From IMG/VR virus record IMGVR_UViG_3300032240_003128: 64,000 bases of DNA. One strand, 5' to 3'. The number at the start of each line of letters is the position of its first letter. Position 1 is the first letter of the stretch. Source of the DNA: a virus. The translations under genes were made by a program, and so were the position numbers. The notes under the pieces are model-generated. The model was given only the letters and a program-made list of their open reading frames with translations, did not search any database and was not told where the DNA came from. This document shows positions 2,268 to 40,140 of this stretch, one piece after another.

Positions 2268-3077
2268 ATGCATTTTATTGAATGGGCTGGCAAATCACCT
2301 GACGTGATTTTTGGATTTGATAAAGGAATTCCATTAAAAAGACAAAATGTTTATAATGAAGAACCAATAGAACCTTTAAAAATTGAAAGCGTAATTGAAG
2401 AAATTGTTAATTTAGGCAAAATAGGGATGAAAGACCCTGTAAAAGATTTTGGTGCTATTGTAAATTATGGTAATCCTAGTCAAGTAGGATCTTTGCAGAT
2501 AAAATTTAGTCCACTTGGATCTTGTCGTGTTACGATTATGCGAAGAATTAGTGATTTGGAAGGTGATTTGACTTGGATTACTCGTTATGCTGTTCCTGTT
2601 ATTAATGATTATGAACATTTGACAGCCGAGGATATATCTACTGAAAAAATGATTGCTGTCAGGGTTCATGAATTGGCAGACTATATTGATAAAACACCAT
2701 TAGAAACACCTAAAAACAAGTATGAAAAGCTAGAAGAATTAGTTGTCATGATTGCTTCTAACATGAAACTTAAGCATCCTTCTGTGATGAATTTTCAAGG
2801 GGTCATGAGGCAAAATGACAACACTTATATAATTTATTTTTCATATAATGGATATGGAATTGAAGCACCGGGTCAAAGAAAAGTAAATCAATTTAATGTT
2901 TATATTGAATTTATCAAAGATAAAGGATTGATAAGATCATGGGGTGCAGAACACTCTGCACCCCACTTGTTATATAACTATGAACCACAACCGCCTGAAT
3001 GGGATGAATATTTTTCTTGTGATCAAAATAAAAATGAAATTGTTACAATTCTTGAGAACATTTTCAAGACTTATTGA
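2268..3077 (+). CDS. hypothetical protein
   Basis: 269 aa ORF, GGAG upstream. Confidence 0.75.
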   Translation: MHFIEWAGKSPDVIFGFDKGIPLKRQNVYNEEPIEPLKIESVIEEIVNLGKIGMKDPVKDFGAIVNYGNPSQVGSLQIKFSPLGSCRVTIMRRISDLEGDLTWITRYAVPVINDYEHLTAEDISTEKMIAVRVHELADYIDKTPLETPKNKYEKLEELVVMIASNMKLKHPSVMNFQGVMRQNDNTYIIYFSYNGYGIEAPGQRKVNQFNVYIEFIKDKGLIRSWGAEHSAPHLLYNYEPQPPEWDEYFSCDQNKNEIVTILENIFKTY

Positions 3078-3400
3078 TCTAGTTCTTGCAATTTGATATA
3101 ACATTCACCAAACACTTCGATGACACCTATGAGAGCTTGAAATTCTTTTTGGGTGTCGTTAATAAAATCTAATTCACGAATAACACGTTTAGTTTCACTT
3201 TTTGAAAATTTGATAGCAGCCTTTAATCCATCATTTTTAAGGATTTGTGTAACTTCACGATATGGCTTATCTTTAGCTTGAAAGTGATAATATGAAAGAA
3301 TGGCATCGCCGCCTTTTGCCTTTGCATCAGCAGCATTGTTTTGTGCGCCTTTGCGCCTATTCTTTAGAAATTCCAAAGGATCATCAGATTGTGATTTCAT
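3071..3400 (-). CDS. hypothetical protein
   Basis: 109 aa ORF, GGAG upstream. Confidence 0.65.
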   Translation of the reverse strand: MKSQSDDPLEFLKNRRKGAQNNAADAKAKGGDAILSYYHFQAKDKPYREVTQILKNDGLKAAIKFSKSETKRVIRELDFINDTQKEFQALIGVIEVFGECYIKLQELDQ

Positions 3401-3429
3401 AAATTTACTTGTTGCTCCATAATATAAAA

Positions 3430-4155
3430 CTATTGATAGATAGCCACAAGAGGTATAAACTTCTCATTATATATTTTTTTAATATCATCCACATTGTAAT
3501 CTTTATATTTTTCGTGTTCTGTCAAACTAGCAATTTCTTTTTGTATCTCTTCCGGCAATCTCTGCACCCATTCGCTACAAAAACACCACAAAGGATCAAT
3601 TTGTTTTGCTCTTATCTGAAGCAAAATTCTTTTTATATTTTTATAAAAATTTTCATATGTGAAATTTTCATTTAATGTATCTTTTAAAGAAATAATTGTT
3701 TTTTCTAAAGCAGATATTATCATTTTATCATCGAGTTTTCTTGTGATTGTTTTGGTAATCATTTTAGTTTCTTCCATCTTTTTACGCCAAACATGATATC
3801 TTTTTTCTGCTTTTTCTCCTATTAGCAAACTTGGACTTATAATTGGATCTCTAGTCTCAAGCAATTTTATTATTTCTAATTGTGCTTTGATAAATATGAA
3901 AAATTCTGCTGGTTTTGTAAATACGCTTCTCTTGTCTCTGACATATTTTAAAACATATTTATAAGCAGATTGATTTATTGCTGGTTTTAAATCATTAAAT
4001 CTAGTGTGATTATAAACTGGAAAATAATGATATTCACAATTCAAATAATATATCAAAAGGTAATAGGCAAATATCATGTTTTCATCGCCTAAAAATCTTT
4101 CAAGCTGATCGGTTGAAACTTTGTAAACTTCACGCATAAATTCCGCCTTGGACAA
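3430..4155 (-). CDS. putative helicase loader (T4 gp59-like)
   Basis: size and pattern resemble gp59 (aromatic N-terminal helix, KAEKRYHVWRKK, ILLQIRAKQIDP, C-terminal NVDDIKKIYNEKF); near a DnaB/gp41 gene; remote, by-eye similarity. Confidence 0.4.
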   Translation of the reverse strand: MSKAEFMREVYKVSTDQLERFLGDENMIFAYYLLIYYLNCEYHYFPVYNHTRFNDLKPAINQSAYKYVLKYVRDKRSVFTKPAEFFIFIKAQLEIIKLLETRDPIISPSLLIGEKAEKRYHVWRKKMEETKMITKTITRKLDDKMIISALEKTIISLKDTLNENFTYENFYKNIKRILLQIRAKQIDPLWCFCSEWVQRLPEEIQKEIASLTEHEKYKDYNVDDIKKIYNEKFIPLVAIYQ

Positions 4156-4197
4156 AATGCCAGTTTGTATTCATTACCCTGAAAAACCAAACCATGC

Positions 4198-4453
4198 AAG
4201 TCAAAATTTTTATTTTTTTTGGCATGATTTTTGCGAATTAATAAATACTAAGTATTTATGTTTATTTGTATTTAAGAAAAACATATTTTTGTTAAGTGGT
4301 ACTAAGTTACTCTGAGCGAAGCGAAGAGTAAGTTAGTACCACTTAAACTAAAGCATCCCTAAGTACGAAGTACTTAGGGATGTATTAATACTAAATACAT
4401 AAATACTTAATTCGCAAAAATCGTGCCAAAAATCGGCAAAATTTTTTTGACTT
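4198..4453. repeat. nested inverted-repeat (branched hairpin/cruciform) element, candidate replication origin
   Basis: outer arms 4216-4241/4407-4432 pair 25 of 26; inner hairpins 4292-4346 and 4354-4382; small palindrome 4241-4259; AAGTCAAAA/TTTTGACTT ends. Confidence 0.9.
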
Positions 4454-4475
4454 TGAAAAGAAATATGCATACATT
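4447..4475 (+). promoter_or_regulatory. sigma70-type promoter for the polA-like gene (leaderless)
   Basis: TTGACT-17-TACATT, then 6 nt to GTG 4482. Confidence 0.55.
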
Positions 4476-4481
4476 TTTAGC

Positions 4482-5792
4482 GTGAGCATAAACGAAACTA
4501 TTTTCGAGCAAATCCACGACACATTTCGTGTCGAAAGTGTTATTTATCTAGAAATATTAAGCAATCCAGACCTTTCAGACAAAAAAAATCTTTTATTACA
4601 CATAAGACTTTTAGGACCAAAAGGTTCTAAATTTGAAATTAAATTACATCAAAACAACACATGTTCGTTTGTACACCATATAAGAAATTGTTTATTGCAA
4701 TTTAATCGACCAATAATTTGCTTGAATTCTAAGCTTTTTCAATCTTTCTGTTTAAAACAAGGCTGTAGAAATTTAATTGATTTTAAATTTATTTTTGATT
4801 TAAATTGGTTTGTTGATTATACAGACACCAGTTGTTCTTTTGATAGATTAAGCGATATATTTTCAACTTTTGTTAAATTTATTAAATCAGAAAATTATGA
4901 AATTTATACTAAAGTTTTTCAAAAATTAATTTGTTGTACTGTTCCATATATGGAAAATCAAGGAATCATTCTTGATGATGAAGCTACATTTGTATATCCT
5001 TATTATTCATCCAGTTTTCAAGAAAATGGTAGACTTAATTCAAAGTTAATTTCAAATAGAAACTTTAATCCACATACTTTGTCACATGAATCAAAATTAA
5101 ATTTTACACTACCAGATGATGAGATTTTTGTATCTTTTGACTTCAAAGCATTAGAGTTATATGTTCTTGCATATCTTAGCAATGATCCAAATTTAAATAC
5201 GATGTTATATAACACATGTCATCCGTATGAACAAATAGCGCAATATACTGTAAATTTAGATAGCTTTAAAGATCAAAATTACAAAGATTTGGGTAAGAAG
5301 TTATTTTTGCCAGCAATTTATGGAATATCCGCAAACAAACTAGCAGAATCATTAGGTTGTTCATTTTTGGAAGCTCAGAATGCATTAAGTAAAACAAAAG
5401 CTTTATTTTCAAAAGCTTTTGATTATGTTGTAGGTCAGATGGCTCAAGCAGAAAACTTTGGTTATTGTTTTGATTACTTTAAAAGAAAAAAGAGTTTTTC
5501 TGCAAATGATTCATATAAAGCAATGAATTTCTCTGTACATTCACCAGCTGCTGTCTTTTGTTTTATTAAGATGAATGAAATTCATTCATTTATTAATCAA
5601 AATTTCCGCCTATTGTTTTCAGTCCATGACTGTTTTGTTTTTGCTGTTAAAAAGGCTGAATTAAATTCAACAATAAAAAATATAAAAAATATTTTACAAT
5701 CAGAATTTGAAGATTACAAACCGCTCAAATTTATTGTTGATATTAAATTTGGTGAAAATTTAGGATTTTTGAAAAATTATTCTGAAATTTGA
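4482..5792 (+). CDS. short family-A DNA polymerase-like protein lacking the thumb
   Basis: motif A SFDFKALELYVLAYLSND, motif B KDLGKKLFLPAIYG, motif C LLFSVHDCFVF; MENQGIILD runs almost directly into NGRL. Confidence 0.8.
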   Translation: MSINETIFEQIHDTFRVESVIYLEILSNPDLSDKKNLLLHIRLLGPKGSKFEIKLHQNNTCSFVHHIRNCLLQFNRPIICLNSKLFQSFCLKQGCRNLIDFKFIFDLNWFVDYTDTSCSFDRLSDIFSTFVKFIKSENYEIYTKVFQKLICCTVPYMENQGIILDDEATFVYPYYSSSFQENGRLNSKLISNRNFNPHTLSHESKLNFTLPDDEIFVSFDFKALELYVLAYLSNDPNLNTMLYNTCHPYEQIAQYTVNLDSFKDQNYKDLGKKLFLPAIYGISANKLAESLGCSFLEAQNALSKTKALFSKAFDYVVGQMAQAENFGYCFDYFKRKKSFSANDSYKAMNFSVHSPAAVFCFIKMNEIHSFINQNFRLLFSVHDCFVFAVKKAELNSTIKNIKNILQSEFEDYKPLKFIVDIKFGENLGFLKNYSEI

Positions 5793-5847
5793 CTATTTTA
5801 GACTTAAGGCTCATATTAGGTCTATTGTTTTCAAGGAGGTTGGTGAA

Positions 5848-6402
5848 ATGAAAATATTTCAGTTGTTTAAGATTAACGCAGATGAATTTAGAGAACTTGA
5901 AGATAAATTTGGAAAACTTTGTTTGTATGCCAGTTGGCAGTTGATATCTAATAATTCTCGTAACAACCACCAGTTAGATGTTGATGATATTAAGCAAGAA
6001 CTTCTTATGTCTGTTATTAGAGCTGGAAGTTATTATAAAAGACAAACTTACATTGAATCATCGTTTGAAATTTTAGAGAAGTATGTATTAGATGATGGAA
6101 TATTTAAGAAAATTTTTGATTCTTTGAAGGATTTGTGGAAAAACAAAACACATCACGGTGCATATCGACGTAAATTTGGAGATCCTCAAGAAGAAATCTT
6201 AGAGAAATTAATTAAGAAATTTGTTCCGCTTCAACAACGTCCTGACATAAATTTACGACTTGATATTAATGCAAAATTTGTTATTTACACGAAGCAGATA
6301 ATATGGAATGCTGCTCGTCATGTCGGGAAAAAAATTACTAAAGAGAAACATCTTCGAGTGGGACAGGTATCATTAAGTGAACACGAACATTTGTACATTT
6401 GA
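5848..6402 (+). CDS. sigma-factor region-2-only protein (gp55-like late sigma candidate)
   Basis: DVDDIKQELLMSVIRA and KFVIYTKQIIWNAARH...QVSLSE match sigma70 region 2; no region-4 HTH; AGGAGG SD. Confidence 0.6.
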   Translation: MKIFQLFKINADEFRELEDKFGKLCLYASWQLISNNSRNNHQLDVDDIKQELLMSVIRAGSYYKRQTYIESSFEILEKYVLDDGIFKKIFDSLKDLWKNKTHHGAYRRKFGDPQEEILEKLIKKFVPLQQRPDINLRLDINAKFVIYTKQIIWNAARHVGKKITKEKHLRVGQVSLSEHEHLYI

Positions 6403-6410
6403 GGTTTAGG

Positions 6411-7940
6411 ATGACCCAACTCACGGAAGATCAACAAAAGCTGCTGGAAAATATGCTTCAGCAGCAGAACACACAAACCAAATTCCGTTGGGATGAAAAT
6501 TTCCAACGTAGAATGCTTGGTATTTTTTTAACTGATAGAAATTTCTTGCTTCAAGGAAAGTCTTTAATTTCGCCAGAATATTTCACTAATGAAGTGCATG
6601 TTGCGGCATGTAAAATTTTATTTAAACTTTTTGAAGAACATCCTTATGGTCTTCCAGATAAGATGATCATAGAAAATGATTTACTCGAAAAAGTAAAAGA
6701 CAAATCTGATTCTGTAAGAATGTATTACAAATCAGAACTGGAATGTCTGTATGAGTTCTTTATTCCAAACCAAGCTTCTAGAGATATACTTTACAACAAA
6801 CTGGTAAACTTTTCTAAGATTCAAAGTCTTAGGATAGCAATGGAAGAATCTCAAAGAGATTTAAAGAAAAACCCTGATTCTGAAGAAATGTGGTCTAAAG
6901 TTTACGAAAGATTTCGTAATTGTATGCTTGTTTCTAAGAATTTTGATGCAGGATTTCAGTATTTCACCCAAATAGATCAGTTTTTTAGTGAATTAGTCAA
7001 AGACGAAGAAAGAGTTGATAAATTTACATCAGGATTTTTGTCTATTGATTTTGAAATATCAGGTGGTGGACCAAGACGTGGTGAAATTTATGCTTTTATT
7101 GCTCTTCCCGGTGTTGGTAAATCTCTTGCTTTGGTCAAAGCCGCTGTTGAAAATGTAAACAGAGGATTCAAAGTTGCCTTCGTATCTGTCGAAATGGATT
7201 GGGTTTCCATTTCAAAAAGGTTTACTTCAGCTTATGCTGGAATGCCTTTTAATAAACTTATCAATCAAAAAGAAGAAATTAAAAGTATACTTGAATACAA
7301 AAGCATGGAATACGAAGACAAAAACAGATTGATTGTAAAACAATTTCCTGCCGGAAGTATTGATGTTAACGATATACGGGCTTATCTGAATCAATTAGAA
7401 TTGTATGGATTTTCTCCAGATGTTTTGATTGTTGATTATCCCGGTGAAATGAAAGATACTCCCGGAGTTCCTGTTTGGGAATCTAAGTATAGAATTATTA
7501 GAGACTTAAGAGGTTTGGCTTGCGAAAAGAAAATGCTTGTTTTTACAGCAATGCAGCCAAATAAATCTGCTTCTGATCTTTCAGCTTCTGAATTTATTGA
7601 GGAGGGTAACATTGGTGCATCATTTGATATGTTTAAGCCTCTTGACGGTTTGTGGTCTATTAACAGAACTACCGATGAGGCTAACGCTCAAGTTGGTAGA
7701 ATTTTCGTTATCAAAAGTAGAAATGGTAAATCAAGATACCATTTCCCTGTAGAATACAATCAAGATATGCTTACTATTTCAGAAATTGATTTTGATAAGT
7801 ATAAAACAAAAATGCACAATAAAGCTCAACAAGACGCAAATACTTATAGCATAACAACTGATACGACTAATATTTCTCATATTGATCCACCTAAAAAGGG
7901 CAAGAAGAAACAACAAAATCCTTCAAATCCTATTGACTAG
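6411..7940 (+). CDS. dnaB: replicative DNA helicase (DnaB/gp41 family)
   Basis: ALPGVGKS, SVEM, LIVDY, TAMQPN and KSRNG motifs. Confidence 0.9.
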   Translation: MTQLTEDQQKLLENMLQQQNTQTKFRWDENFQRRMLGIFLTDRNFLLQGKSLISPEYFTNEVHVAACKILFKLFEEHPYGLPDKMIIENDLLEKVKDKSDSVRMYYKSELECLYEFFIPNQASRDILYNKLVNFSKIQSLRIAMEESQRDLKKNPDSEEMWSKVYERFRNCMLVSKNFDAGFQYFTQIDQFFSELVKDEERVDKFTSGFLSIDFEISGGGPRRGEIYAFIALPGVGKSLALVKAAVENVNRGFKVAFVSVEMDWVSISKRFTSAYAGMPFNKLINQKEEIKSILEYKSMEYEDKNRLIVKQFPAGSIDVNDIRAYLNQLELYGFSPDVLIVDYPGEMKDTPGVPVWESKYRIIRDLRGLACEKKMLVFTAMQPNKSASDLSASEFIEEGNIGASFDMFKPLDGLWSINRTTDEANAQVGRIFVIKSRNGKSRYHFPVEYNQDMLTISEIDFDKYKTKMHNKAQQDANTYSITTDTTNISHIDPPKKGKKKQQNPSNPID

Positions 7941-9715: not shown

Positions 9716-10002
9716 TGAATCAGCGGGAAAAAGATCAAAAAAAGAAAGCTAGAGCGATTGCATCAAGAAAGAAAGTGCTTGCTCGTAGATTGGAAATTAG
9801 AAAAACAAGAAAAGAAGAAATTACATTAGAAAAAGAATTTGAATCTAGGGAATCTAAATATTTAAGCAGAGAAGAGATTACGCAACAATTGGAGCATAAT
9901 CTCAAAATTCTTGAGCAGTATGAAAAATTATTAGCAGAGCAAGACAAGTCGCTTGACAATAGTTCTTTGCCTGATAATAATAGCAGTACACCTATGGTGT
10001 GA
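9715..10002 (+). CDS. basic hypothetical protein
   Basis: TAATG coupling to the upstream gene. Confidence 0.65.
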   Translation: MNQREKDQKKKARAIASRKKVLARRLEIRKTRKEEITLEKEFESRESKYLSREEITQQLEHNLKILEQYEKLLAEQDKSLDNSSLPDNNSSTPMV

Positions 10003-10067
10003 ACCTTTGGGGACAGGTAAAGTCCTTAGCAGTGTGGTGTGTAATACACCCAGAAAGGCAGTTGGTT

Positions 10068-11009
10068 ATGGCAGATTACGAGTTAGACACCCTTGATATT
10101 AACGAAATTGGCAGAGAAGCTAATCGTCTTAACAAGGAACAGACAGCAACAAACGACAATTATGTCAGGATGCCGGAAAAAGATGGATTTGTTTTGATCC
10201 GCATTCTTCCAAAGCTTAAAGGCAAACCATTTTTTCATGCGGTAAGAATTCATCGGCTTGGTGAATATCCAAACGCTAAAACAATTTTTTGCACAAGAGA
10301 ATTGATCAAAACTCCCAAAGGCGAGTTTTGGAAAGCATCTAGCCCAGATCGTGAATGCCCAATTTGCAGAGAATATAATGCAATGTGGGAGAAGTCTAAA
10401 AAGATGCCTCCTTCACAAGCAAAAGTTATTCAGGAACAAGCTCGATCAATTAAGCCTGTTGAACGGTATTACTACAATGCCATTGTTCGATCTCAGCTTA
10501 ATGGCAAAACCAATCAAATTGAAAACAATGTTGGACCCAAGATTTTCTCTTGTGGTAAGACTTTGCACAATATCATTTGTGTTTCAATTTATGGCAATGA
10601 AACTACCGGCAAACGCAAATTAGGTGACGTTGCTAGTCCTGTTAACGGCAGAGATTTTAAGGTTGTTAAGGTGGTTCGTGGTGCCAATGGTTATCCAAAC
10701 TACGATCAATCTTTCTTCGAAGATCCTTCACCTCTTGGAACGAAGGAACAAATCAACAATTGGCTTTCATCTTATCAAGATCTGGAATCGATCCCAGTTT
10801 ATCTGACGATTCAACAGATCGAGGAGGCGATTCATTCGTTTCTTTCGGGAGATGAGCCCGTTGCACAAGTTGCAGCAGAGGCACCAAAGAAAGCAGTATC
10901 GAAAAATGCTGCGCCAAAGGTTGAAGAAGGCTTGCTAGATGACGTTGAAGGTTTGATTGACTCTGATATCGAAGCACAGCTTGGTAATATTGGGTTTGGA
11001 AAGAGGTAA
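10068..11009 (+). CDS. gp32-like single-stranded DNA-binding protein
   Basis: IRILP, H...C...CPIC zinc ligands, GRDFKVVK, GYPNYDQSFF and acidic tail. Confidence 0.85.
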   Translation: MADYELDTLDINEIGREANRLNKEQTATNDNYVRMPEKDGFVLIRILPKLKGKPFFHAVRIHRLGEYPNAKTIFCTRELIKTPKGEFWKASSPDRECPICREYNAMWEKSKKMPPSQAKVIQEQARSIKPVERYYYNAIVRSQLNGKTNQIENNVGPKIFSCGKTLHNIICVSIYGNETTGKRKLGDVASPVNGRDFKVVKVVRGANGYPNYDQSFFEDPSPLGTKEQINNWLSSYQDLESIPVYLTIQQIEEAIHSFLSGDEPVAQVAAEAPKKAVSKNAAPKVEEGLLDDVEGLIDSDIEAQLGNIGFGKR

Positions 11010-19428: not shown

Positions 19429-19634
19429 AAGGCTTCAAGAAATGGCTCCAAATTGATGAAGTAGCTACTAGCACAGCAGATGTGGCTCATTTCTCATTGC
19501 CTATCGGTGCTGGTATGATTAGTAGAACATTTCCCCAGTTTTTTAGTGTCGGGCAGCATGGATTAGGTGGACCAGTTCAGCAATTAACTGATACAGATTA
19601 TGTTAAACCAAAAAGGAAAAAGAGGCGATCATGA
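19425..19634 (+). CDS. small virion internal protein candidate
   Basis: MKGFKKWLQIDE; basic tail; ATGA overlaps. Confidence 0.65.
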   Translation: MKGFKKWLQIDEVATSTADVAHFSLPIGAGMISRTFPQFFSVGQHGLGGPVQQLTDTDYVKPKRKKRRS

Positions 19635-20098
19635 TAACATTTTATGATTTTTTAGCTGAACAAGATGCACCATTACCACCGCTAGGACAACCACAGCAGC
19701 AACAAGGACAGCAGCAAGGTCAACCACAGCAGCAACAAGGTCAGCAGCAAGGTCAGCAACAAGGTCAACCACAGCAGCAGCAAGGACAGCAGCAAGGTCA
19801 ACCGCAGCAAGATAATATTCTTGTCCACAGAGGTATTCAATATGACAAGGCACAAGTAAAAAAATATATATTCCAAGTTTATGATGACTTATATCAAAAA
19901 GAAAATAAGCTTCAATTTTTTGTAATGGATATGTTTGAAAATGATCCAAAACGTAATGAAATTCAACAAAAAGTAGCAGCCGAACACATGAAAATTCATG
20001 ATATTATTGAAGATATTAAAGCGTATTATCAAAGTGTATTACAGCCAAACACACCAAAAGAAACGAGAAAGTGGCGTTTCGGAGATACTAAAAAATAA
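19631..20098 (+). CDS. Gln-rich virion internal protein candidate
   Basis: MITFYDFLAE; GQ(P)QQQ repeats. Confidence 0.7.
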   Translation: MITFYDFLAEQDAPLPPLGQPQQQQGQQQGQPQQQQGQQQGQQQGQPQQQQGQQQGQPQQDNILVHRGIQYDKAQVKKYIFQVYDDLYQKENKLQFFVMDMFENDPKRNEIQQKVAAEHMKIHDIIEDIKAYYQSVLQPNTPKETRKWRFGDTKK

Positions 20099-30516: not shown

Positions 30517-32589
30517 ATGGTTACTTTGAGCCAGTTTGTAGACAAGAATAAGCTAGAGCAATTCAACAGATTAAATGAAGTTGTTAGTTTTGAGCAATAT
30601 CTCAATCGTTGTTACACCAATCCAAAACTTGTCAGAAATTCACATCAACGAATTTATGACATGATTGTGTCGCAGGGCACATCTGAAATTGAAAAGTACC
30701 GCAAAAAGGTAATTGTTTATAATTTCTTTGAAAAACACGAACAAATCAAGGTCTTTGGAATTGAAGAACAACTTGAATCACTAGTTGCACACTATAAAGG
30801 TGCTGCTGGTGGCTACGGACCAGAAAAGCGAATCCTTCTTCTTTGCGGTCCTGTAGGATCTGCAAAGTCTACAATTGTTCGTCTTATTAAGCGAAGCATG
30901 GAAGATTATTCTCAAAATGATGCTGGTGCTTGGTTTACATATCGTTGGATCAATTTGCCAACAGGTAGCGATGGTATCTACACTTCTGACACTTGTGAAT
31001 GTCCAATGAATGAAGAGCCGCTCAAGCTTCTTCCATTCGATGTTCGCAAAAAGATTCTTTATGAACTTAACGGCATACACAAAGAACAAGCTGATGTGTC
31101 GCAACACACAACTCTTTACACTCTTGACGTTAAGGGTGAAATTAATCCTAAATGCAAGTTCTTTTATGACAAGTTGCTTGAAAAGTATAATGGTGATTGG
31201 ACTCAAGTTCTTTCCAATCACGTTGAAGTTATTCGCAAGAATTACAATGAAGCCAAGCGTGTAGGTATTGCTTCATTCCAGCCAAAGGATGAAAAAAATC
31301 AAGATAGCACTGAGTTGACAGGAGACATCAACTTTGCTTTATTGCCAACATTTGGTAGTGATTCTGACCCTCGCTGCTTCAATTTTGATGGAGAATTTGA
31401 AGTTGCCAACAGAGGTATCATTGAATTTATTGAAATGTTAAAGCTTGAAGTTGCATTCCTTTATGACCTTTTGGGTGCATCTCAGGAACAATCTATCAAG
31501 CCAAAGAAGTATTCTCAGATTTCGATTGATGAATCAATTATTGGGCATACCAATATGCCAGAATATGAGAAGCTCAAGAACAATCAGTTCATGGAAGCTC
31601 TTAAGGATAGAACTGTCAGAATTGAGATTCCTTATTTGCTTGAATGGAGCAAGGAACTCAAGGTTCTTGAACAGGATTATAATTCAGATAAAATCAAGCA
31701 GCATATTGCTCCACACACTCTTGAAATTGCAGCTTTGTTTGCTGTTCTTACCAGATTGGAAGATGACAAAGATAATAAGATCACGATTACGGAAAAGGCT
31801 GATCTTTATGATGGTAAGATGTTACCCGGATGGACTGTTGATCGTGTGAAAGAACTTCGTGAAAAGAATCCCAATGAAGGGATGATGGGTCTTTCTGCTC
31901 GTTATGTTCAAGACAAAGTTTCTTCTACCTTGTCAAGCCGACACGATTATATCAATCCATTTATGGTTCTTAATGCGCTTAAGAGTGGTCTTGATAATCA
32001 TTCTTTGATTACCAATAAAGATCTTGTTCGCAAGTATCAAAACTGCATCACTTTGTCTACCAAGAAGTTAGATGACATTCTGAAAAACGAAGTGCAAAAG
32101 GCTTTGGTTGGTGATGAAGAGGCAATTGTAAGGTTGTGTGCTAACTATATCGATAACCTTATGGCTTATATTAACAAGGCAAAGATTCTTAATAAGATTA
32201 CTGGCAGAGAAGAAACAGCTGATGAGAAATTGATGCGTTCTATTGAATCCAAGATTGATGTTCCAGAATCGACTTGTGATGACTTCCGTAGAATGATTGC
32301 AGCTTTTATTGGTGATCTTGCTGTTAAGGGTAAGATTTTCCGTTGGGACAGTAATCCTCTTCTTAAGAAAGCTTTAGAATCTAAGTTGTTTGAAGATACG
32401 AAGGATCATATTAAGTTGAGTGCATTCTCCAGTGGAGCAAGCACTGTTGATCCTGATGTGCAGAAGAAAATCGATGCTGTAAAACAGCGTTTGGTTGATA
32501 AATATGGATACAATGAACAGTCTGCAACAGATGTTCTAGACTATGTTTCAAGTATCTTTGCTAGGGGCGATCTAGCAGATAACGACTAA
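30517..32589 (+). CDS. prkA: PrkA/YeaG AAA+ serine kinase-family protein
   Basis: GPVGSAKS, CPMNEEPL, DEKNQDSTELTG, ANRG and HIAPHTLE motifs. Confidence 0.95.
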   Translation: MVTLSQFVDKNKLEQFNRLNEVVSFEQYLNRCYTNPKLVRNSHQRIYDMIVSQGTSEIEKYRKKVIVYNFFEKHEQIKVFGIEEQLESLVAHYKGAAGGYGPEKRILLLCGPVGSAKSTIVRLIKRSMEDYSQNDAGAWFTYRWINLPTGSDGIYTSDTCECPMNEEPLKLLPFDVRKKILYELNGIHKEQADVSQHTTLYTLDVKGEINPKCKFFYDKLLEKYNGDWTQVLSNHVEVIRKNYNEAKRVGIASFQPKDEKNQDSTELTGDINFALLPTFGSDSDPRCFNFDGEFEVANRGIIEFIEMLKLEVAFLYDLLGASQEQSIKPKKYSQISIDESIIGHTNMPEYEKLKNNQFMEALKDRTVRIEIPYLLEWSKELKVLEQDYNSDKIKQHIAPHTLEIAALFAVLTRLEDDKDNKITITEKADLYDGKMLPGWTVDRVKELREKNPNEGMMGLSARYVQDKVSSTLSSRHDYINPFMVLNALKSGLDNHSLITNKDLVRKYQNCITLSTKKLDDILKNEVQKALVGDEEAIVRLCANYIDNLMAYINKAKILNKITGREETADEKLMRSIESKIDVPESTCDDFRRMIAAFIGDLAVKGKIFRWDSNPLLKKALESKLFEDTKDHIKLSAFSSGASTVDPDVQKKIDAVKQRLVDKYGYNEQSATDVLDYVSSIFARGDLADND

Positions 32590-32604
32590 TATGAGGATTG
32601 AAAA

Positions 32605-33798
32605 ATGCCCCGCCGTATAGACTCTGATCATAAAGACTTCAGAGACGTAGTCAGTGGCAGGATTAGAAAGAACTTAAAAAAGTTTATTAAAAGTGGTGAA
32701 ATATTTCGCCACCGTGGTAAAAATGGCAAAGTATCAATAAAGATTCCTGCTATTGATATACCTCATTTTCTCCATGGTAGGAATCCCAATGGAGCAGGGC
32801 GTGGAGAAGGTGAACAAGGCGATACAATTGGCAAGGATAAAGGTCAAGGCAAAGGTCAGGGCAATGGTGCTGGTCAGGATGAAAGCGAAGGCATCATTGT
32901 CCAACTAGACATGGAAGACATTCTTCATTTTATGAAGGATGAATTGATGCTTCCTGATCTTAAGCCTAAGCAACAAGCCAATCTCGAAGATGTAAAAATC
33001 AAATACAATAATATTTCTTTAGTTGGTCCAGAATCTCTTAGACATACTCGTCGCACAATGTTGACCGCAATGAAGCGTCTCTGTGGGACAGGTGAAATTA
33101 ATAATTTGTATGAAATTCCCGGAATTAAAGACAAAGTTAAAATGATCAATCCGATTAATTCGGACAAGAGATATCGTCAATACAAAGAAATTAGTTTTCC
33201 ATCTAGCAATGCTGTTGTTATTTTTGCCAGAGATGCAAGTGGATCAATGGATGATCGAAAAGTAAATGTTGTTTCCGACATGGCTTATTGGATTGATGTT
33301 TACATTAGAAACTTTTATGAAAGAGTCGAAAGGCTTTATGTGTGGCATGATGTTCAAGCACACGAAGTAGATGCCAAAGATTTTTACAGAATTAGAAATG
33401 GTGGAGGAACTACTTGCTCCACAGCGTTAGAATTGGTTGCCAAACAATTTGAAAATAGATTTCCACCAAACAATTGGAATATTTATTTCTTTTATTTTAC
33501 CGATGGTGAAAACTACGACAATGACAATGAAGTTTTTACAGCATTGTTGAAGAAAGAATTTCCACAAAGCGTTGTCAACCTTGTCGCTATAACTCAAATC
33601 GGTGCTTATTCTTACAAGAATAGTGTTGCAGAAGCTGTTGAAAAAGCAATAGTCGAAGGTGATTTGGAAGATAACGTAGTTGTTGCAGAAATTCCATTTG
33701 ATGTTATCAATAGTGAAGAGAAGAGAGACGAAGCTATTTTGAAAGCTATTAAGGATATTCTGGGTACTCCTTTCCAAAGTGCTAATCAGGTGTTTTAA
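32605..33798 (+). CDS. yeaH: YeaH/YhbH (DUF444) vWA-like protein
   Basis: IDIPHF, Gly-rich linker, DASGSM, GGGT and TDGEN motifs. Confidence 0.9.
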   Translation: MPRRIDSDHKDFRDVVSGRIRKNLKKFIKSGEIFRHRGKNGKVSIKIPAIDIPHFLHGRNPNGAGRGEGEQGDTIGKDKGQGKGQGNGAGQDESEGIIVQLDMEDILHFMKDELMLPDLKPKQQANLEDVKIKYNNISLVGPESLRHTRRTMLTAMKRLCGTGEINNLYEIPGIKDKVKMINPINSDKRYRQYKEISFPSSNAVVIFARDASGSMDDRKVNVVSDMAYWIDVYIRNFYERVERLYVWHDVQAHEVDAKDFYRIRNGGGTTCSTALELVAKQFENRFPPNNWNIYFFYFTDGENYDNDNEVFTALLKKEFPQSVVNLVAITQIGAYSYKNSVAEAVEKAIVEGDLEDNVVVAEIPFDVINSEEKRDEAILKAIKDILGTPFQSANQVF

Positions 33799-33800
33799 TT

Positions 33801-35396
33801 ATGTCAGATAAATTTCTATTTGGTTCGCCTGTTCTCTTTGGATCAGCAACCACTCCGGGTGTGCCTATTCCAGAAGAATTGCAAAAACACATTCCTACTA
33901 TTTTTCAAGCGTGTAAAGATTTTGGTTTAGATTTTTATCCTACAATTGTTCAAATGCTTTCTCATGACGAGATGTCTGAAGTTGCATCTTACGGTGGTTT
34001 TGCAGTAAGATTTCCTCACTGGAAATTTGGCGCAGAATACGAAGAAATGCAAAGAGGATATCTGTACGGCAATCATAGAATATATGAAATGGTGATTAAT
34101 TCTTCACCATGCTACTTATATTGCTTAAATTCAAATACTTTGCTTGACAATATCACAGTTATTGCTCATGCTCTTGGGCATTGTCACTTTTTCAAAAATA
34201 ACATTCATTTTTCTAGAACTAATACAAATGCTCACAATGAGCTTGCCAACAATGGATCAAATGTAAGAAAGTATATGTCTCGATATGGAAGAGAAACTGT
34301 TACTGAATTCATGGATCATTTGTTCAGAATAGAGACTCTTGTTGATCCAATGAATATCTGGAAAGAAAGAAAAGCAAAAGACGTTGTCATCACTGATAAT
34401 AAAGATTATGTGTTTCCACGAAGAATTAAAACAAAAAATGATTACATGGAAGATTGGATTAATACTAAATCTTTTATAAAAGCTCAAAACAAAAAGATTG
34501 AAGAACGTGAGATTATGCAAGATCTCAATCTTCTTATTACTCCAGAGTCTGACATATTTGGTTATATTAAGGAAAATGCACCGTTCAAACCTTGGCAACG
34601 AGATATTGCAGAGATTCTTTACAACGAAGCAATTTATTTTAGCCCACAAGGCAAGACAAAAGCATTGAATGAAGGTCTTGCAAGTTATTGTGATTATCAC
34701 ATCATTGCAAAGCAAGGTTATTGCAGCCTTGGTCAAGATACAGAAGATGCTGGAATCGTAGAATATTCAATCCACAAGGCTGGAGTTCTTGGCGGCAAGT
34801 ATAGTATGAATCCATACAAACTTGGATTTACCCTTCTTATGGATATTGAGGAAAGATGGGACAAGGGTAGATTTGGCACAGATTATGAAAATTGTACAGA
34901 TCCTATTGAAAAAGAAAACTGGGATCTAAAGATTGGACTGGGTAAGCAAAAAGTTTTTGAAGTATGCAAAAACTATGATGATTATCAATTCATCAATGAG
35001 TTCTTCACTAAAGATTTCTGTGAAAAGAATGAATTCTTTGAGTACAAGCGTTATCCAACAGGTGAAGTTAAGATCGAAAGCAGAGATTACAAAAAGATTA
35101 AAAAGGAATTGTTGCGCAAGTACATTAACCGTGGTTTGCCTAATATCAAACTTATTGAACCAAGGTTTAAAGGAAATATGTTTTTGATGGAACATAAGTG
35201 GGAAGGCATAGAACTTTATAAGGCTTATGCATATGAAGTCATGAAGTCCATATGTTTTCTTATGAGACAACCAGTTGTATTACAAACAAAAAACCATAAT
35301 GGCGATGAAGTTTTTTATTATTGCCAAGATATGAATGGTGATTATAGTGCTGCTGATCCCAAAACAATTACACGGGAGCAACTAAACAAGTTATGA
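33801..35396 (+). CDS. spoVR: SpoVR/YcgB-family protein
   Basis: RFPHWKFG, IYEMVIN, AHALGH..FFKNN, NEGLASY and NPYKLG motifs. Confidence 0.93.
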   Translation: MSDKFLFGSPVLFGSATTPGVPIPEELQKHIPTIFQACKDFGLDFYPTIVQMLSHDEMSEVASYGGFAVRFPHWKFGAEYEEMQRGYLYGNHRIYEMVINSSPCYLYCLNSNTLLDNITVIAHALGHCHFFKNNIHFSRTNTNAHNELANNGSNVRKYMSRYGRETVTEFMDHLFRIETLVDPMNIWKERKAKDVVITDNKDYVFPRRIKTKNDYMEDWINTKSFIKAQNKKIEEREIMQDLNLLITPESDIFGYIKENAPFKPWQRDIAEILYNEAIYFSPQGKTKALNEGLASYCDYHIIAKQGYCSLGQDTEDAGIVEYSIHKAGVLGGKYSMNPYKLGFTLLMDIEERWDKGRFGTDYENCTDPIEKENWDLKIGLGKQKVFEVCKNYDDYQFINEFFTKDFCEKNEFFEYKRYPTGEVKIESRDYKKIKKELLRKYINRGLPNIKLIEPRFKGNMFLMEHKWEGIELYKAYAYEVMKSICFLMRQPVVLQTKNHNGDEVFYYCQDMNGDYSAADPKTITREQLNKL

Positions 35397-36518: not shown

Positions 36519-37853
36519 ATGAAGACAGTTGGTTTTGAACATCTTCATTGTCACAGCGAATACTCTGTCCTTGATGGGCTAGCATCAATTGATGAGTTAA
36601 TTTCACGTTGGTCACCACATGGCGATTATCTTTGCGTGACAGACCATGGATTGATGGGTGCTATCCCCAGTCTAATCACAAAGACAGAACAAGCTGAAAA
36701 GAAATTACAGCCTATTTTTGGCTGCGAGCTTTATGTGAACTCTATTCACAATGAGCCAACAGAAACAGAAGATGCTAGAGATAAATTTATAAAAAATTTA
36801 TCTCCACAAGAATTTGAAAATTTCAAAGTATCCAGTCACATCTTGGCAATTGCGGTTACGAATAAAGGTTATGAAAACCTAACCAAGCTTTGCAGCCTTG
36901 GCTGGAGTCAAGGGTTTTATCGCAAGCCTAGAGTAAATCACAAAACTCTTCAACAATACAAAGAAGGAATTGTGTTTACTTCTTGTTGCTGCGCTTCTGA
37001 AGCTGCCAGAGCTTTGCGTGTGCATGGAAAAGAAATAGCAGAATCTACTGTCCTGAAATATAAAGATATGTTTGGTGATAATTTTTACCTTGAAATGATG
37101 CTTTTAGATTTTGAGTATCAAAGAGAATATGATCAGTTTTTAGTTGAAATGCATATTAAACATCAGATTCCAATGATTATTACTAATGATGTGCATTATG
37201 CATATCAAGAAGACAGCAAATATCAAACTTTGATGATGTTGGTAAACACTAAAAGAACATTAGCTGAAATTGAAAAGTTGAAAGCTGAAAATGCTGATGT
37301 GTTTGAATTGCAAGATAGAAATTTATGGATGAAAACAGAAGAAGAATTGAATCAGAAATGGGCTGAGAAATATTCTGATGTGATTCCTTTGGAGATTTAC
37401 GAACAAGCCAAGATGAATACTGTTAAGATATGTAAGATGGCATCTGGTGTTAAGTTAGACAGAAGTGTTAAATTACCTAGATTGAATGATGATGAAGGCT
37501 CTTTAAAGGATTTGGTATTGAAAGGTATGTTTTACAGAGGAATATCCAAATCAAATCGTATTTACACAAAACGTGTTGCAGAAGAATTGGATCTTATTTT
37601 TAGGAAACAATTTGCTAGTTACTTTTTAATAGTCAAGAGTTTTACCGATGAAGCTAGAAGAAAATGCCAAGAGATTACAGGCTTGGATGGTGTCTATGCG
37701 GTTGGACCCGGTCGAGGTTCTGGTGCTGGTTCTCTCGTCTTATATTTACTTGGTGTTACTGACGTAGATCCTATCAAGCACGATCTTCTGTTCTCACGAT
37801 TCCTGTCAGAGAACAGAGGTAGTCAAGCTGTGCTGAAGTTTAGTCAATCTTGA
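36519..37853 (+). CDS. dnaE: DNA polymerase III alpha, N-terminal part (PHP domain plus first part of palm)
   Basis: HLHCHSEYSVLDG, TDHG, GCE, NDVHY; GPGRGSGAGSLV, DPIKHDLLFSRFL; stops before PDxDxD. Confidence 0.92.
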   Translation: MKTVGFEHLHCHSEYSVLDGLASIDELISRWSPHGDYLCVTDHGLMGAIPSLITKTEQAEKKLQPIFGCELYVNSIHNEPTETEDARDKFIKNLSPQEFENFKVSSHILAIAVTNKGYENLTKLCSLGWSQGFYRKPRVNHKTLQQYKEGIVFTSCCCASEAARALRVHGKEIAESTVLKYKDMFGDNFYLEMMLLDFEYQREYDQFLVEMHIKHQIPMIITNDVHYAYQEDSKYQTLMMLVNTKRTLAEIEKLKAENADVFELQDRNLWMKTEEELNQKWAEKYSDVIPLEIYEQAKMNTVKICKMASGVKLDRSVKLPRLNDDEGSLKDLVLKGMFYRGISKSNRIYTKRVAEELDLIFRKQFASYFLIVKSFTDEARRKCQEITGLDGVYAVGPGRGSGAGSLVLYLLGVTDVDPIKHDLLFSRFLSENRGSQAVLKFSQS

Positions 37854-37868
37854 TTGAAGTTTATATTA

Positions 37869-39776
37869 TTAATTGCTTTTAAAATCATCTAATTTGTCAA
37901 TATTTTCTTGATTTAAAATTTTTGCCATGTCATCTTTGTTTATTATTTTCCTTGCAAGCAATGATTTAATATGGTCGGCAGATAATTTGTTAATGTTATC
38001 TGGACCCAATGCTTCTATAATTTCTTTTCTGGCAGCGTTGTTGTATCCCTTGCCACTAAGACAAGCAAAAACATTATTAGCAGATAATTCTGTTTTATAT
38101 GTAATTATAATCTTTATTATTTTGTATGTTTCAACTTGATAAAAGACAAGATTATCAACACTATTATCAGATAATTTATTCATATTGCGTGAACCTAAGA
38201 TTCTTGCCATTTCATGTTTGTTTTCTGATCGTTCAAGCAAATTATAGACGTGAAAATCACCTAATTTATCAATATTATTTGAACCTAATAATTCTGCCAT
38301 TTTATATTTATAAGGTGCTTCGTTAAGCAATTCATAAGCATAATCAGCAGTTAATTTATCTATATTATTTGAACCTAAGATATTTGCTATTTCTGTTGAT
38401 TCAGAACTATTGTATTTCAACAAACTATAGACATCATGACCTGTTAATTTATCTATATTGTCTTGACCTAATTCTTCTTTAATTTTATATTTATTTTTTG
38501 CACTTTTGATAAAATACAAAACATTCTCATCAGATAATTCTGATTTTTTAATTATCTCTGATATCAAATTTTGATTTTCCGTTCTATTAGCAAATACTAT
38601 CTTGCTATTAAGATCCAATGAGTTGACATAACCGCTTGTGTTTTTGGCAAAATCAAATTGATAATTACTCAAATTTTGCAATTTTCCTAATACAAATTCT
38701 TTCTTTTGATCATCAGTAAGTGTGTTAAAATCTTCATCTGTCATCTTATCTACAACTTTCAAATACATAGGGAAAACTCTAGGATCAGGATCATTCTTGG
38801 CAAATTCGAAAGCTATCCTGTCAGTGTATAATTTTAAATTTTGTTCCCAAATTTCGGGTTCTGTTGTTGTCCAAGTGCTTTCAGGAATACCTTTACTTGC
38901 CAAATATCTTTTATATTCATTTATACTTGTATATCCATTGATACCAATTTTTGATCTTGTGTCTTCTGGGTCTCTAGAATGTTTGTTTTCAGCATCAACC
39001 CACTCAGAAGATTTACCTTCTGGAGCTACACCCGGATTAACATATCTGGCTGGATCATTTTCATCTTTATTAAAATCGAAGACAAAGTATTGAGTTTGAT
39101 GATAACGTATTCTGTAATCAAACCAATGTGATGCCGAAGTTGAACTGGAAATGCACCATCTTTGGTTTTTACCAAATATTCTACATATGTCTGGCGTATC
39201 GCCTTTGAATACCCAAACATTATCGCCTTTGGCTGCTAGGTTTTTTTGATATTTTCTTTCTCCAGCTATTGGGTTGAATAAACCTGATTTTTGTTCGTAT
39301 TTAGTTAAACTGCCTTGGATTGAGTGTAATTCTGATTCAAATTTTGTAAAATCATTAAATTCTTCAATTTTTTTATCTTTGTTTATATAAATTTTATTGT
39401 TTTTCACTTCTAAGCTAATGATTTCGTTGCCGATGAACCTTCTGAGAAGGTTCATCATTTCTGTTACTCTGTTTTTATCTTCGTTTTTGAACAAAAGAAA
39501 AGTGTCAAATTCTGGTTTAGTTATTTGATTTGTGTTTAATTTGTCTTGATAGAATTTAGTTTGTCCATCTTCTTGCTTAATTAATTTTTGTTTGATTAAT
39601 GGAAATCTTTCTCTCAATCTGGCAAATGCAGCTTTTCTATCAACTGGATCTGGTTCATCTTCAAGTTCTTTAATAAAAGCTGCAAGTTCATCTTTAGGCG
39701 ATTTATCCTGTTCTAATGCTCCTTTTATTTGAGCATCTAATGTTTCAGACAATACAAACCAAAGCTTGAAGTTCAT
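37869..39776 (-). CDS. virion-type protein with WC-motif domain and C-terminal ~37-aa helical repeats
   Basis: MNFKLWFVLSE; FGKNQRWCIS; repeated LG.NNIDKL units. Confidence 0.75.
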   Translation of the reverse strand: MNFKLWFVLSETLDAQIKGALEQDKSPKDELAAFIKELEDEPDPVDRKAAFARLRERFPLIKQKLIKQEDGQTKFYQDKLNTNQITKPEFDTFLLFKNEDKNRVTEMMNLLRRFIGNEIISLEVKNNKIYINKDKKIEEFNDFTKFESELHSIQGSLTKYEQKSGLFNPIAGERKYQKNLAAKGDNVWVFKGDTPDICRIFGKNQRWCISSSTSASHWFDYRIRYHQTQYFVFDFNKDENDPARYVNPGVAPEGKSSEWVDAENKHSRDPEDTRSKIGINGYTSINEYKRYLASKGIPESTWTTTEPEIWEQNLKLYTDRIAFEFAKNDPDPRVFPMYLKVVDKMTDEDFNTLTDDQKKEFVLGKLQNLSNYQFDFAKNTSGYVNSLDLNSKIVFANRTENQNLISEIIKKSELSDENVLYFIKSAKNKYKIKEELGQDNIDKLTGHDVYSLLKYNSSESTEIANILGSNNIDKLTADYAYELLNEAPYKYKMAELLGSNNIDKLGDFHVYNLLERSENKHEMARILGSRNMNKLSDNSVDNLVFYQVETYKIIKIIITYKTELSANNVFACLSGKGYNNAARKEIIEALGPDNINKLSADHIKSLLARKIINKDDMAKILNQENIDKLDDFKSN

Positions 39777-39781
39777 AATTT

Positions 39782-40075
39782 TTAGTCCAAGTGGCTAACT
39801 TCATAACCATCAAAATTACTTGTTTTTGAATAATCAATGCTTGGTGTTCCTAGATCACCGAAAGGTTTGTCTGTATTGTAACCTTTAGCTCTGTATGGCA
39901 AGCTTTTTTTTCCTTGCAAAGGAAATCCATAATGCTTGCCTTTAACAAAAGTATTTTCCGGCGCATCTGGTTGTGGGAAGGCATACACCTTCATAATGTC
40001 TTGAAGTTTTTTCTGTGAACCACCAATTTCTGTATCTTTTTTAAATTGTTCTAATGTTTTAAATTTCTTTGCCAT
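39782..40075 (-). CDS. small virion-type hypothetical protein
   Basis: CTAAATA plus GAGG SD upstream. Confidence 0.65.
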   Translation of the reverse strand: MAKKFKTLEQFKKDTEIGGSQKKLQDIMKVYAFPQPDAPENTFVKGKHYGFPLQGKKSLPYRAKGYNTDKPFGDLGTPSIDYSKTSNFDGYEVSHLD

Positions 40076-40106
40076 GTTTCACCTCTACTTTATTTAGGTT
40101 TTTCGC

Positions 40107-40134
40107 TTGATTTTTAACGCATAATTGCTAAAAT
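40107..40134 (+). promoter_or_regulatory. sigma70 promoter for the C-terminal dnaE gene (leaderless)
   Basis: TTGATT-16-TAAAAT with extended TG, ATG 6 nt downstream. Confidence 0.6.
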
Positions 40135-40140
40135 TAACAC

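Follow-up and report, generated by a model that had tools for sequence, protein, structure and literature searches.

The element examined here lies at positions 4198-4453 of a 64 kb stretch of viral DNA (64,000 nucleotides; hereafter, the window), inside a 326-nt gap between a minus-strand open reading frame (ORF; 3430-4155) and a plus-strand gene for a small family-A DNA polymerase (polA, 4482-5792; 436 aa, GTG start). The upstream gene is divergent from polA and, from the ORF list, encodes a protein of 235-241 aa, with a start at either an ATG (4137) or a TTG (4155). This protein is all-helical with two domains, and it adjoins the element in every relative. A structure model of the 241-aa form was confident (pLDDT 85) and likewise all-helical; the protein had no match in Pfam or PHROG and no significant fold match to its model, the best rows being generic helical AAA+ lid-like bundles (Z about 5). 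Its identity as a T4 gp59-like loader was unsupported (Foldseek E 1.4, structural Z 3.1). On the 3' side of polA are a 184-aa ORF that resembles sigma domain 2 (5848-6402, plus strand) and then a gene for a DnaB-like helicase (6399-7940, plus strand). The 184-aa product gave many matches to domain 2 of the sigma-70 family, at modest scores (Z 5.6-7.5), and fits a small phage sigma factor. A coding reading of the interval itself was rejected, a 52-aa ORF being called there in one lineage only.

Besides the DnaB-like helicase, the window encodes other helicases, a gp32-like single-stranded DNA-binding protein (SSB; 9999-11009), a UvsX/RecA-like recombinase, a branch-migration-type helicase, a dCMP deaminase, ThyX, and a split DnaE-type polymerase, together with a PrkA-DUF444-SpoVR cluster. 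Shine-Dalgarno sequences precede many of its genes. The largest ORF is 883 aa, with no giant virion RNA polymerase in the window; the 64 kb yielded no primase gene, and none for a resolvase was recognized beside the element. A DNA search returned no close relative among GenBank phages. By protein, the nearest deposited record is the 595 kb uncultured phage LR756511, whose PolA homologue is without a comparable intergenic region upstream. CheckV estimated related element-bearing IMG/VR records of 91-111 kb to be 16-23% complete, and a related 546 kb contig (C90) was binned in a Bacteriovoracaceae metagenome-assembled genome (MAG). The source is probably an uncultured double-stranded DNA phage of about half a megabase.

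All structural details that the original prediction had listed for this interval were found in the sequence. The outer arms (4216-4241/4407-4432) pair over 26 nt with one mismatch, can be extended to 39 nt at 85% (4203-4241/4407-4445), and constitute the longest inverted repeat in the window. Between them, on the plus strand, are hairpin A (4292..4346), composed of 14 bp, a G.G mismatch, 7 bp, and the apex GA-GCGAAGC-GA, and hairpin B (4354..4382), a perfect 13 bp stem closed by a C-GAA-G triloop. The wider 19-nt apex of hairpin A, CTCT-GA-GCGAAGC-GA-AGAG, occupies 4310-4328. A palindrome at 4241-4259 and an alternative 13 bp pairing (4249-4261/4397-4409) are also present. The d(GCGNAGC)/C-GNA-G class of loop motif is represented twice, by GCGAAGC at 4316-4322 and C-GAA-G at 4366-4370, and no C-GNA-G hairpin in the window other than hairpin B has a stem that reaches 5 bp. 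The left spacer (4242..4291; 14% GC) contains most of the 4241-4259 palindrome, differs in length among relatives, and falls in the lowest 0.7% of the window's 50-nt windows for GC content. WTAAATAC boxes are found at 4241-4248 (plus strand), 4252-4259 (minus strand), and 4268-4275 (minus strand), and 4 of the 12 window-wide matches to this motif fall in 4241-4406. The spacer and the box cluster thus supply an AT-rich stretch and clustered short repeats of the kind by which origins are recognized, and we regard 4242..4291 as a candidate DNA unwinding element. The right spacer (4383..4406; 12% GC) contains CTAAATAC (4390-4397) and ATAAATAC (4399-4406); boxes resembling TACTAAGTA recur within the element and in distant relatives.

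We folded both strands of 4198-4453 with DNA and RNA parameters, each against 200 shuffles. As DNA, the plus strand reached -72.9 kcal/mol (z -16.7) and the minus strand -67.2 (z -14.1); as RNA, the values were -107 (z -16.8) and -96.8 (z -12.7), respectively. None of the 200 shuffles folded as well. Because both strands and both chemistries fold strongly, folding energy alone cannot tell which molecule or strand matters. One copy of the element occurs in the window, as in each of three related records (91-111 kb); a covariance model of hairpins A and B detected no further copy, whether elsewhere in the window or in distant relatives. Rfam covariance models gave no match at 3000-6000 and a chance match only elsewhere.

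Conservation and covariation of the hairpins

To collect relatives, we located syntenic loci through PolA homologues and added IMG/VR contigs from a scan with the hairpin A apex. Sought in this way, the structure turned up in about a dozen distinct versions, recovered from ENA, JGI, Logan, and IMG/VR assemblies that are independent of one another, and in each case the same two genes flank it. Since the element recurs at the same site in independent assemblies, it is neither an assembly artefact, a concern attached to the original prediction, nor a mobile element.

An alignment of 15 elements was then tested for covariation against 500 shuffles and slid controls. Hairpins A and B together contain 15 pairs with compensatory double changes (6 in A and 9 in B; 55 cells of the alignment). 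This count was reached in 0 of the 500 shuffles, and slid controls yielded only 2-4 pairs. The comparison supports selection for pairing in hairpins A and B; the covarying stems with conserved GNA loops that had been predicted are found in these two inner hairpins.

Comparison of the relatives led to several further observations. First, those with 62-79% PolA identity all share the 19-nt apex letter for letter, the N of GNA excepted (GAA to GTA). Second, hairpin B comes in ten stem variants, each of them a perfect 13-16 bp helix, and its loop is C-GAA-G in all relatives but one (L014: TTC); over 399 nt, L014 is the same as L013 apart from this exactly inverted hairpin B loop. Third, a relative with 35% PolA identity (L016/L190) carries C-GAA-G and C-GCA-G hairpins on the polA strand, and the hairpin B core TACGAAGTA is kept in L016. 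The loop variants GTA and GCA among the relatives differ only at the N of GNA. The GAA loops, whose conservation had been in question, are hence essentially invariant on the polA-sense strand, and the proposal that they are optimised on the plus strand holds here and in all relatives bar the loop flip of L014. Fourth, G.T wobbles in the hairpins (14 cells) all lie on the plus strand and there are no C.A cells, and the top strand folds better than the bottom strand in 14 of the 15 relatives. Several relatives also have a third plus-strand mini-hairpin in the right arm (GCGCGAAGC or GCGCGTAGC), over the -12 GC.

A further 40 IMG/VR contigs with a 26-34% identical PolA had neither hairpins nor boxes, so the element is clade-specific. 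In a metagenome-wide scan with the 19-nt apex, most of the matches fell in GC-rich DNA and either were due to chance or lay in coding sequence. The same apex also caps a hairpin between genes of an unrelated GC-rich phage, where it looks more terminator-like.

The outer arms and the flanking promoters

In the original prediction, the 26 bp outer stem was a selected helix that closed a branched fold. The alignment argues otherwise: the stem shows no compensatory change, and five variable positions lose pairing in 4-6 of the 15 sequences. The invariant blocks of each arm are TTGGCA and TTTGC; at the five intervening positions, each arm varies independently of the other. These conserved positions coincide with the sigma-54 consensus and the variable ones with its N positions. 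The left box, TGGCATGATTTTTGC (4220..4234, plus strand), and the right box, TGGCACGATTTTTGC (4414..4428, minus strand), both face inward and match the sigma-54 -24/-12 consensus, with predicted starts near 4246 and 4402, respectively. They have the GG at -24, the GC at -12, and the fixed spacing of TGGCAC-N5-TTGC. TGGCAY-N5-TTGC has 2 exact matches in the 64 kb, where 0.32 would be expected, and these are the two arms; in three related records, the two boxes are likewise the sole matches. The arms therefore resemble a pair of protein-recognition boxes in inverted orientation more than a helix under selection, although in a naked single strand they still pair in 14 of the 15 relatives, and a branched fold is possible there.

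The right, minus-strand box is the copy kept in the most distant relatives (L016/L190 and C90), and it stands upstream of leftward genes in three lineages, C90 among them. C90 has the box (TGGCAC, 106,416-106,430; PolA ORF start ~106,684) and AAGTAC motifs; hairpins are absent. Three other TGGCAC-N5-TTGC matches in C90 lie inside ORFs and are chance-like. The MAG that contains C90 carries rpoN and is enriched in the motif (15 versus 1 in the control), which is suggestive of a host with sigma-54, binning being no proof of host. In the related phage records, no sigma-54 DNA-binding domain was found and the activator family gave only weak, unspecific P-loop matches; no activator site is recognizable upstream of the boxes. 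Were the inward boxes genuine promoters, transcription would run through the hairpins in both directions, and these would thus exist as RNA as well.

Putative promoters that point outward flank the element. A -35-like hexamer, TTGACT (4199..4204, minus strand), faces the upstream gene and, in this lineage, makes up the outer end of the 39-nt inverted repeat; GTCAA(A/G) is kept in most relatives (GTCGA in L008) but about 60-100 nt further from the left arm. On the other side, a sigma-70-like promoter, TTGACT-N17-TACATT (4447..4475, plus strand), ends 6 nt before the polA GTG. Most relatives have this arrangement, i.e., TTGACT-N17-TA..TT and then a polA GTG/ATG after 6-7 nt, and the -35 hexamer is TTTGCT or TTGACA in L013, L015, and L016. 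A promoter 6-7 nt before the polA start implies a leaderless or near-leaderless mRNA. Because this proximal promoter is conserved, a 235-nt leader from the left box is not needed.

A candidate origin and competing explanations

The original prediction took the position of the element in the replication block as a hint of an origin, and this gains support: the locus is single copy in that block, and its homologue in C90 lies close to a skew minimum. The cumulative GC-skew minimum of C90, at 106,027, is the lowest among 7 local minima and stays so after detrending, and the homologous, hairpin-free intergenic region upstream of polA is about 0.3-0.4 kb from it. Among element-bearing records, G001 has its record-wide minimum 3.7 kb left of the element, with a sustained rise that starts at the element, and G002 and G003 have only a local minimum within 4-6 kb of it. 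In the 64 kb window, the skew rises from the start with no minimum inside; the records are 16-23% complete. Because skew tracks the direction of genes, a minimum tends to fall between diverging genes anyway, and we treat the position of the element as supportive, not decisive, evidence for an origin.

The placement of the element between divergent promoters inside the replication module counts for an origin; the hairpin-free C90, the lack of a primase gene in the window, the loop flip in L014, and the apex in the GC-rich phage count against, as would transcription of the hairpins from the inward boxes.

GNA-capped DNA hairpins are known as start signals at the G4/St-1/alpha3 origins, at RSF1010 ssiA, and at the N4 early promoters (PMC13037366). 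The d(GCGAAGC) hairpin melts at 76.5 C, versus 39 C for the RNA octamer r(GCGAAAGC), and such mini-hairpins bind SSB poorly (PMC13037366). In N4, a C:G-closed GNA loop allows extrusion at physiological supercoiling, and SSB melts the hairpin of the other strand only (PMC4496689). This precedent, in which SSB spares only the GNA hairpin, would readily account for the optimisation of loops on a single strand. We suggest, at a confidence just short of an even chance, that the element is an origin-associated single-stranded DNA hairpin signal, the core of an origin or priming site of a very large double-stranded DNA phage. What survives of the original prediction is thus the single-stranded DNA element itself, for which the inner hairpins covary, the GNA loops are near-invariant, and the G.T pairs are confined to the plus strand, along with its proposed role in origin function or priming. 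The T/Y shape likened to a parvovirus ITR, whose Y-shaped outer stem lacks covariation in its arms, is not supported, and a role as RNA keeps some probability, since inward promoters would have the hairpins transcribed in both directions and one relative has a flipped loop.

How might such a signal work? The AT-rich spacer would be opened by divergent transcription running outward, or else by an initiator or a helicase, after which the polA-sense strand could fold in vivo into hairpins A and B. By analogy with the systems above, the GNA/GCGAAGC caps would render these hairpins highly stable as DNA and let them resist coating by the phage gp32-like SSB. The hairpins, if they persist, would serve as a fixed structural mark at which a primase, an RNA polymerase, or a helicase loader might start. 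The inward TGGCAY-N5-TTGC boxes would be protein recognition sites, most simply for the host sigma-54 holoenzyme, that open or gate the region. A more specific and distinctly unlikely version is an origin, in a phage of roughly 0.5 Mb, that transcription activates and sigma-54 gates, with closed E-sigma54 on the two convergent boxes; their firing, or melting of the spacer, would allow the hairpins to escape SSB and to nucleate priming or helicase loading. A bolder variant of this gated origin, in which the adjacent small PolA-like enzyme itself recognizes the hairpins, is much less likely.

Of the competing explanations, control at the RNA level has the strongest claim, although we consider it rather unlikely. 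Here, face-to-face sigma-54 promoters would produce overlapping leaders, and the hairpins would be attenuators, terminators, processing sites, or protein-binding sites for the upstream gene and the polA-sigma-dnaB operon. The boxes themselves speak for it: they are exact, their TTGGCA and TTGC are kept while the spacer drifts, the minus-strand copy stays upstream of leftward genes in three lineages including C90, and the MAG with C90 has rpoN and the 15 versus 1 excess of motifs. On the minus strand, hairpin B followed by CTTTAGTTTA scores as terminator-like, RNA folds match DNA folds in strength, and the identical apex sits on an intergenic hairpin of the unrelated GC-rich phage. The loops, however, are poor stabilisers of RNA, being neither GNRA nor UNCG, and the RNA melts at a far lower temperature. 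The GNA is on the plus strand, whereas the anciently conserved box would drive a minus-strand RNA carrying CUUCG. Furthermore, polA has its own conserved proximal promoter, the element has no Rfam match, and neither an enhancer-binding protein nor a sigma-54 gene was seen in the related phage records.

Alternatively, the hairpins could act as a cruciform in double-stranded DNA, either as a supercoil sensor or regulator of the divergent promoters or as the target of a junction-resolving nuclease that provides ends for recombination-dependent replication. Perfect 13-16 bp stems with a 3-nt spacer and AT-rich flanks are ideal for extrusion, for which N4 gives a precedent; the site is between divergent promoters, and the phage has a UvsX-like recombinase, a gp32-like SSB, and a branch-migration-type helicase. 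A loop flip alongside perfect stems also fits frequent intrastrand template switching. We nevertheless judge the cruciform improbable: it leaves the conservation of loop sequence and strand, and the invariant 19-nt apex, unexplained, and no resolvase gene was identified adjoining the element.

An N4-type hairpin promoter, at which a phage RNA polymerase would recognize a template-strand GNA hairpin and start transcription or a primer RNA, appears quite improbable. The neighbouring small PolA-like enzyme shares its polymerase superfamily with single-subunit RNA polymerases, and the C-GNA-G loops with their C:G closing pair match those of N4 P1-P3. But the N4 type has a 5-7 bp stem and a 3-nt loop centred near -11, which keeps +1 outside the stem; the stems here are 13-22 bp, and a start about 8-11 nt from the loop would lie inside them. 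There is one locus instead of several early promoters, the largest ORF of the window is 883 aa, and the 436-aa protein scores as DNA polymerase A.

Plain duplex operator palindromes for dimeric regulators, where the hairpin never forms, would account for the recurrence of TACTAAGTA-like boxes and for arms that are inverted copies of one motif. This explanation is very improbable, as the stems vary freely yet stay complementary (ten hairpin B variants), a signature of base pairing, and an asymmetric GAA is not expected at the centre of an operator. Finally, we give next to no credence to an assembly artefact or to a mobile element, be it a MITE or one with IS200/IS605-like ends: inverted repeats at the termini and hairpins just inside them recall a mobile element, but the element is single copy at one constant syntenic site, has no transposase nearby, and recurs in many independent assemblies.

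To our knowledge, no replication origin has been defined experimentally in a huge phage. At about 220 bp, the element is a candidate that is compact, conserved, single copy, and directly clonable. Should the reading as an origin-associated hairpin signal be correct, the use of GNA mini-hairpins as signals, as in G4-type origins, RSF1010 ssi, and N4 promoters, would extend to a large double-stranded genome. Should the sigma-54-gated origin be correct as well, it would be the first defined origin architecture of a huge phage and a new use of sigma-54 sites together with GNA mini-hairpins in a double-stranded replicon; the pairing of sigma-54-type boxes with hairpins is in any case unusual for a phage. 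Even if the element is regulatory, its covarying perfect stems, invariant loops, and natural loop flip make it a clean system for the formation of hairpins or cruciforms in vivo.

Comparison with known systems

Among known systems, the parvovirus ITR shares with the element a branched fold that is possible on paper, and the one loop flip recalls flip/flop. Unlike an ITR, the element is internal in every contig, its outer stem is without comparative support, and no Rep or nickase context surrounds it. The boxes agree with bacterial sigma-54 promoters in TGGCAY-N5-TTGC and its exact spacing; they differ in that these putative promoters converge from about 180 bp apart and lie in the genome of a lytic-type phage.

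The T4 origins oriF and oriG have a MotA-dependent middle promoter and no conserved hairpins. Like these and ColE1-type origins, the element combines a promoter with a following AT-rich unwinding element in a neighbourhood of replication and recombination genes, here with gp32-like and UvsX-like members. Unlike in oriF and oriG, its boxes are of the sigma-54 type, paired, and convergent. With the N4 early promoters, the element shares a C:G-closed GNA triloop on one strand only. In N4, by contrast, the stems measure 5-7 bp, three copies precede early genes, and a virion polymerase of 3,500 aa is required; the element shares none of these features.

The G4/St-1/alpha3 complementary-strand origins and RSF1010 ssiA/ssiB resemble the element in having hairpins capped by GCGNAGC- or CCGAAGG-type loops; in those systems, the hairpins are fixed structures on SSB-coated DNA at which a primase starts (PMC13037366). 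Compared with G4 and the ssi sites, the stems here are much longer (13 and 22 bp), and the genome is that of a double-stranded DNA phage of roughly 0.5 Mb. In RSF1010, ssiA and ssiB are on opposite strands and Rep iterons flank the hairpins, whereas here both GNA hairpins are on one strand and sigma-54-type boxes flank the element. The overall layout, however, is that of RSF1010 oriV: hairpins in a large inverted repeat, beside an AT-rich region, in a double-stranded replicon.

Loop and apex of the hairpins

The C-GAA-G loop of hairpin B (4354-4382) has an inverted counterpart among the relatives. Between the related loci L013 (3732-3938) and L014 (3732-3938), which come from separate samples, the sole difference over 399 nt is an exactly inverted hairpin-B loop, CAC-GAA-GTG in the former vs CAC-TTC-GTG in the latter. 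The difference is a natural flip of a perfect palindrome's spacer, the outcome that recombination between the arms or intrastrand template switching would be expected to produce.

The 19-nt apex of hairpin A (4310-4328), CTCT-GA-GCG[A/T]AGC-GA-AGAG, also caps long hairpins in unrelated contexts (L023:665-683; L041:7321-7339, minus strand; and L116:1633-1651). One such hairpin is intergenic, with a GC-rich stem of 20 bp, in a phage of 58% GC, and another has an AT-rich stem on a short contig of 31% GC. The cap may be a recurrent stabilizing module.

Arms, sigma-54-type boxes, and polA start

Boxes matching the sigma-54 consensus lie at 4220-4234 and 4414-4428, one in each arm, and at 106416-106430 (locus L357) of C90, a related contig. 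The minus-strand box is kept upstream of leftward genes in three divergent huge-phage lineages, and in several relatives it overlaps, at its -12 GC, a plus-strand GCGCGAAGC mini-hairpin. The related loci L005-L012 carry an additional segment that includes a GCCGTTTA...TAAACGGC hairpin; it is located ~100-170 nt leftward of the left arm, between the arm and the leftward -35-like hexamer. The window's inverted repeat reaches 39 nt because its lineage lacks this segment.

On the polA side, a conserved TTGACT-N17-TA..TT promoter is followed after 6-7 nt by the GTG start of polA (promoter and start, 4447-4484). This start has no Shine-Dalgarno sequence, which most other genes of the window possess, and judged by sequence polA appears to be leaderless.

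Related genomes and other genes of the window

The relatives G001-G003 (91-111 kb; the IMG/VR records behind L048, L019, and L044) are 16-23% complete by CheckV. C90 (G005; 546 kb) was binned in a Bacteriovoracaceae MAG and encodes PrkA (64% identity) and the small PolA (31%). Rather than bacterial DNA, this contig appears to be a huge phage related to the window's.

In the window, a phage-borne cluster of three genes (30517-35396) encodes a PrkA kinase, a DUF444 (YeaH-like) protein, and a SpoVR-like protein. A DnaE-type polymerase III alpha is split in two (36519-42612): the first part (36519-37853) holds the PHP domain and the start of the NTPase domain, and the remainder occupies 40141-42612. 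Between them, on the minus strand, lies a 635-aa ORF of no known family (37869-39776) with ~5 repeats of 90 nt (30 aa). A CAG/CAA-rich tandem array (19669-19809; units of 12-21 nt) within ORF 19631-20098 consists of Gln-rich coding repeats.

Finally, a 184-aa ORF lies 3' of polA (5848-6402). Its predicted fold, which includes an insertion and lacks region 4, resembles that of domain 2 in many factors of the sigma-70 family (Z 5.6-7.5), and the product is possibly a small sigma factor of the phage.
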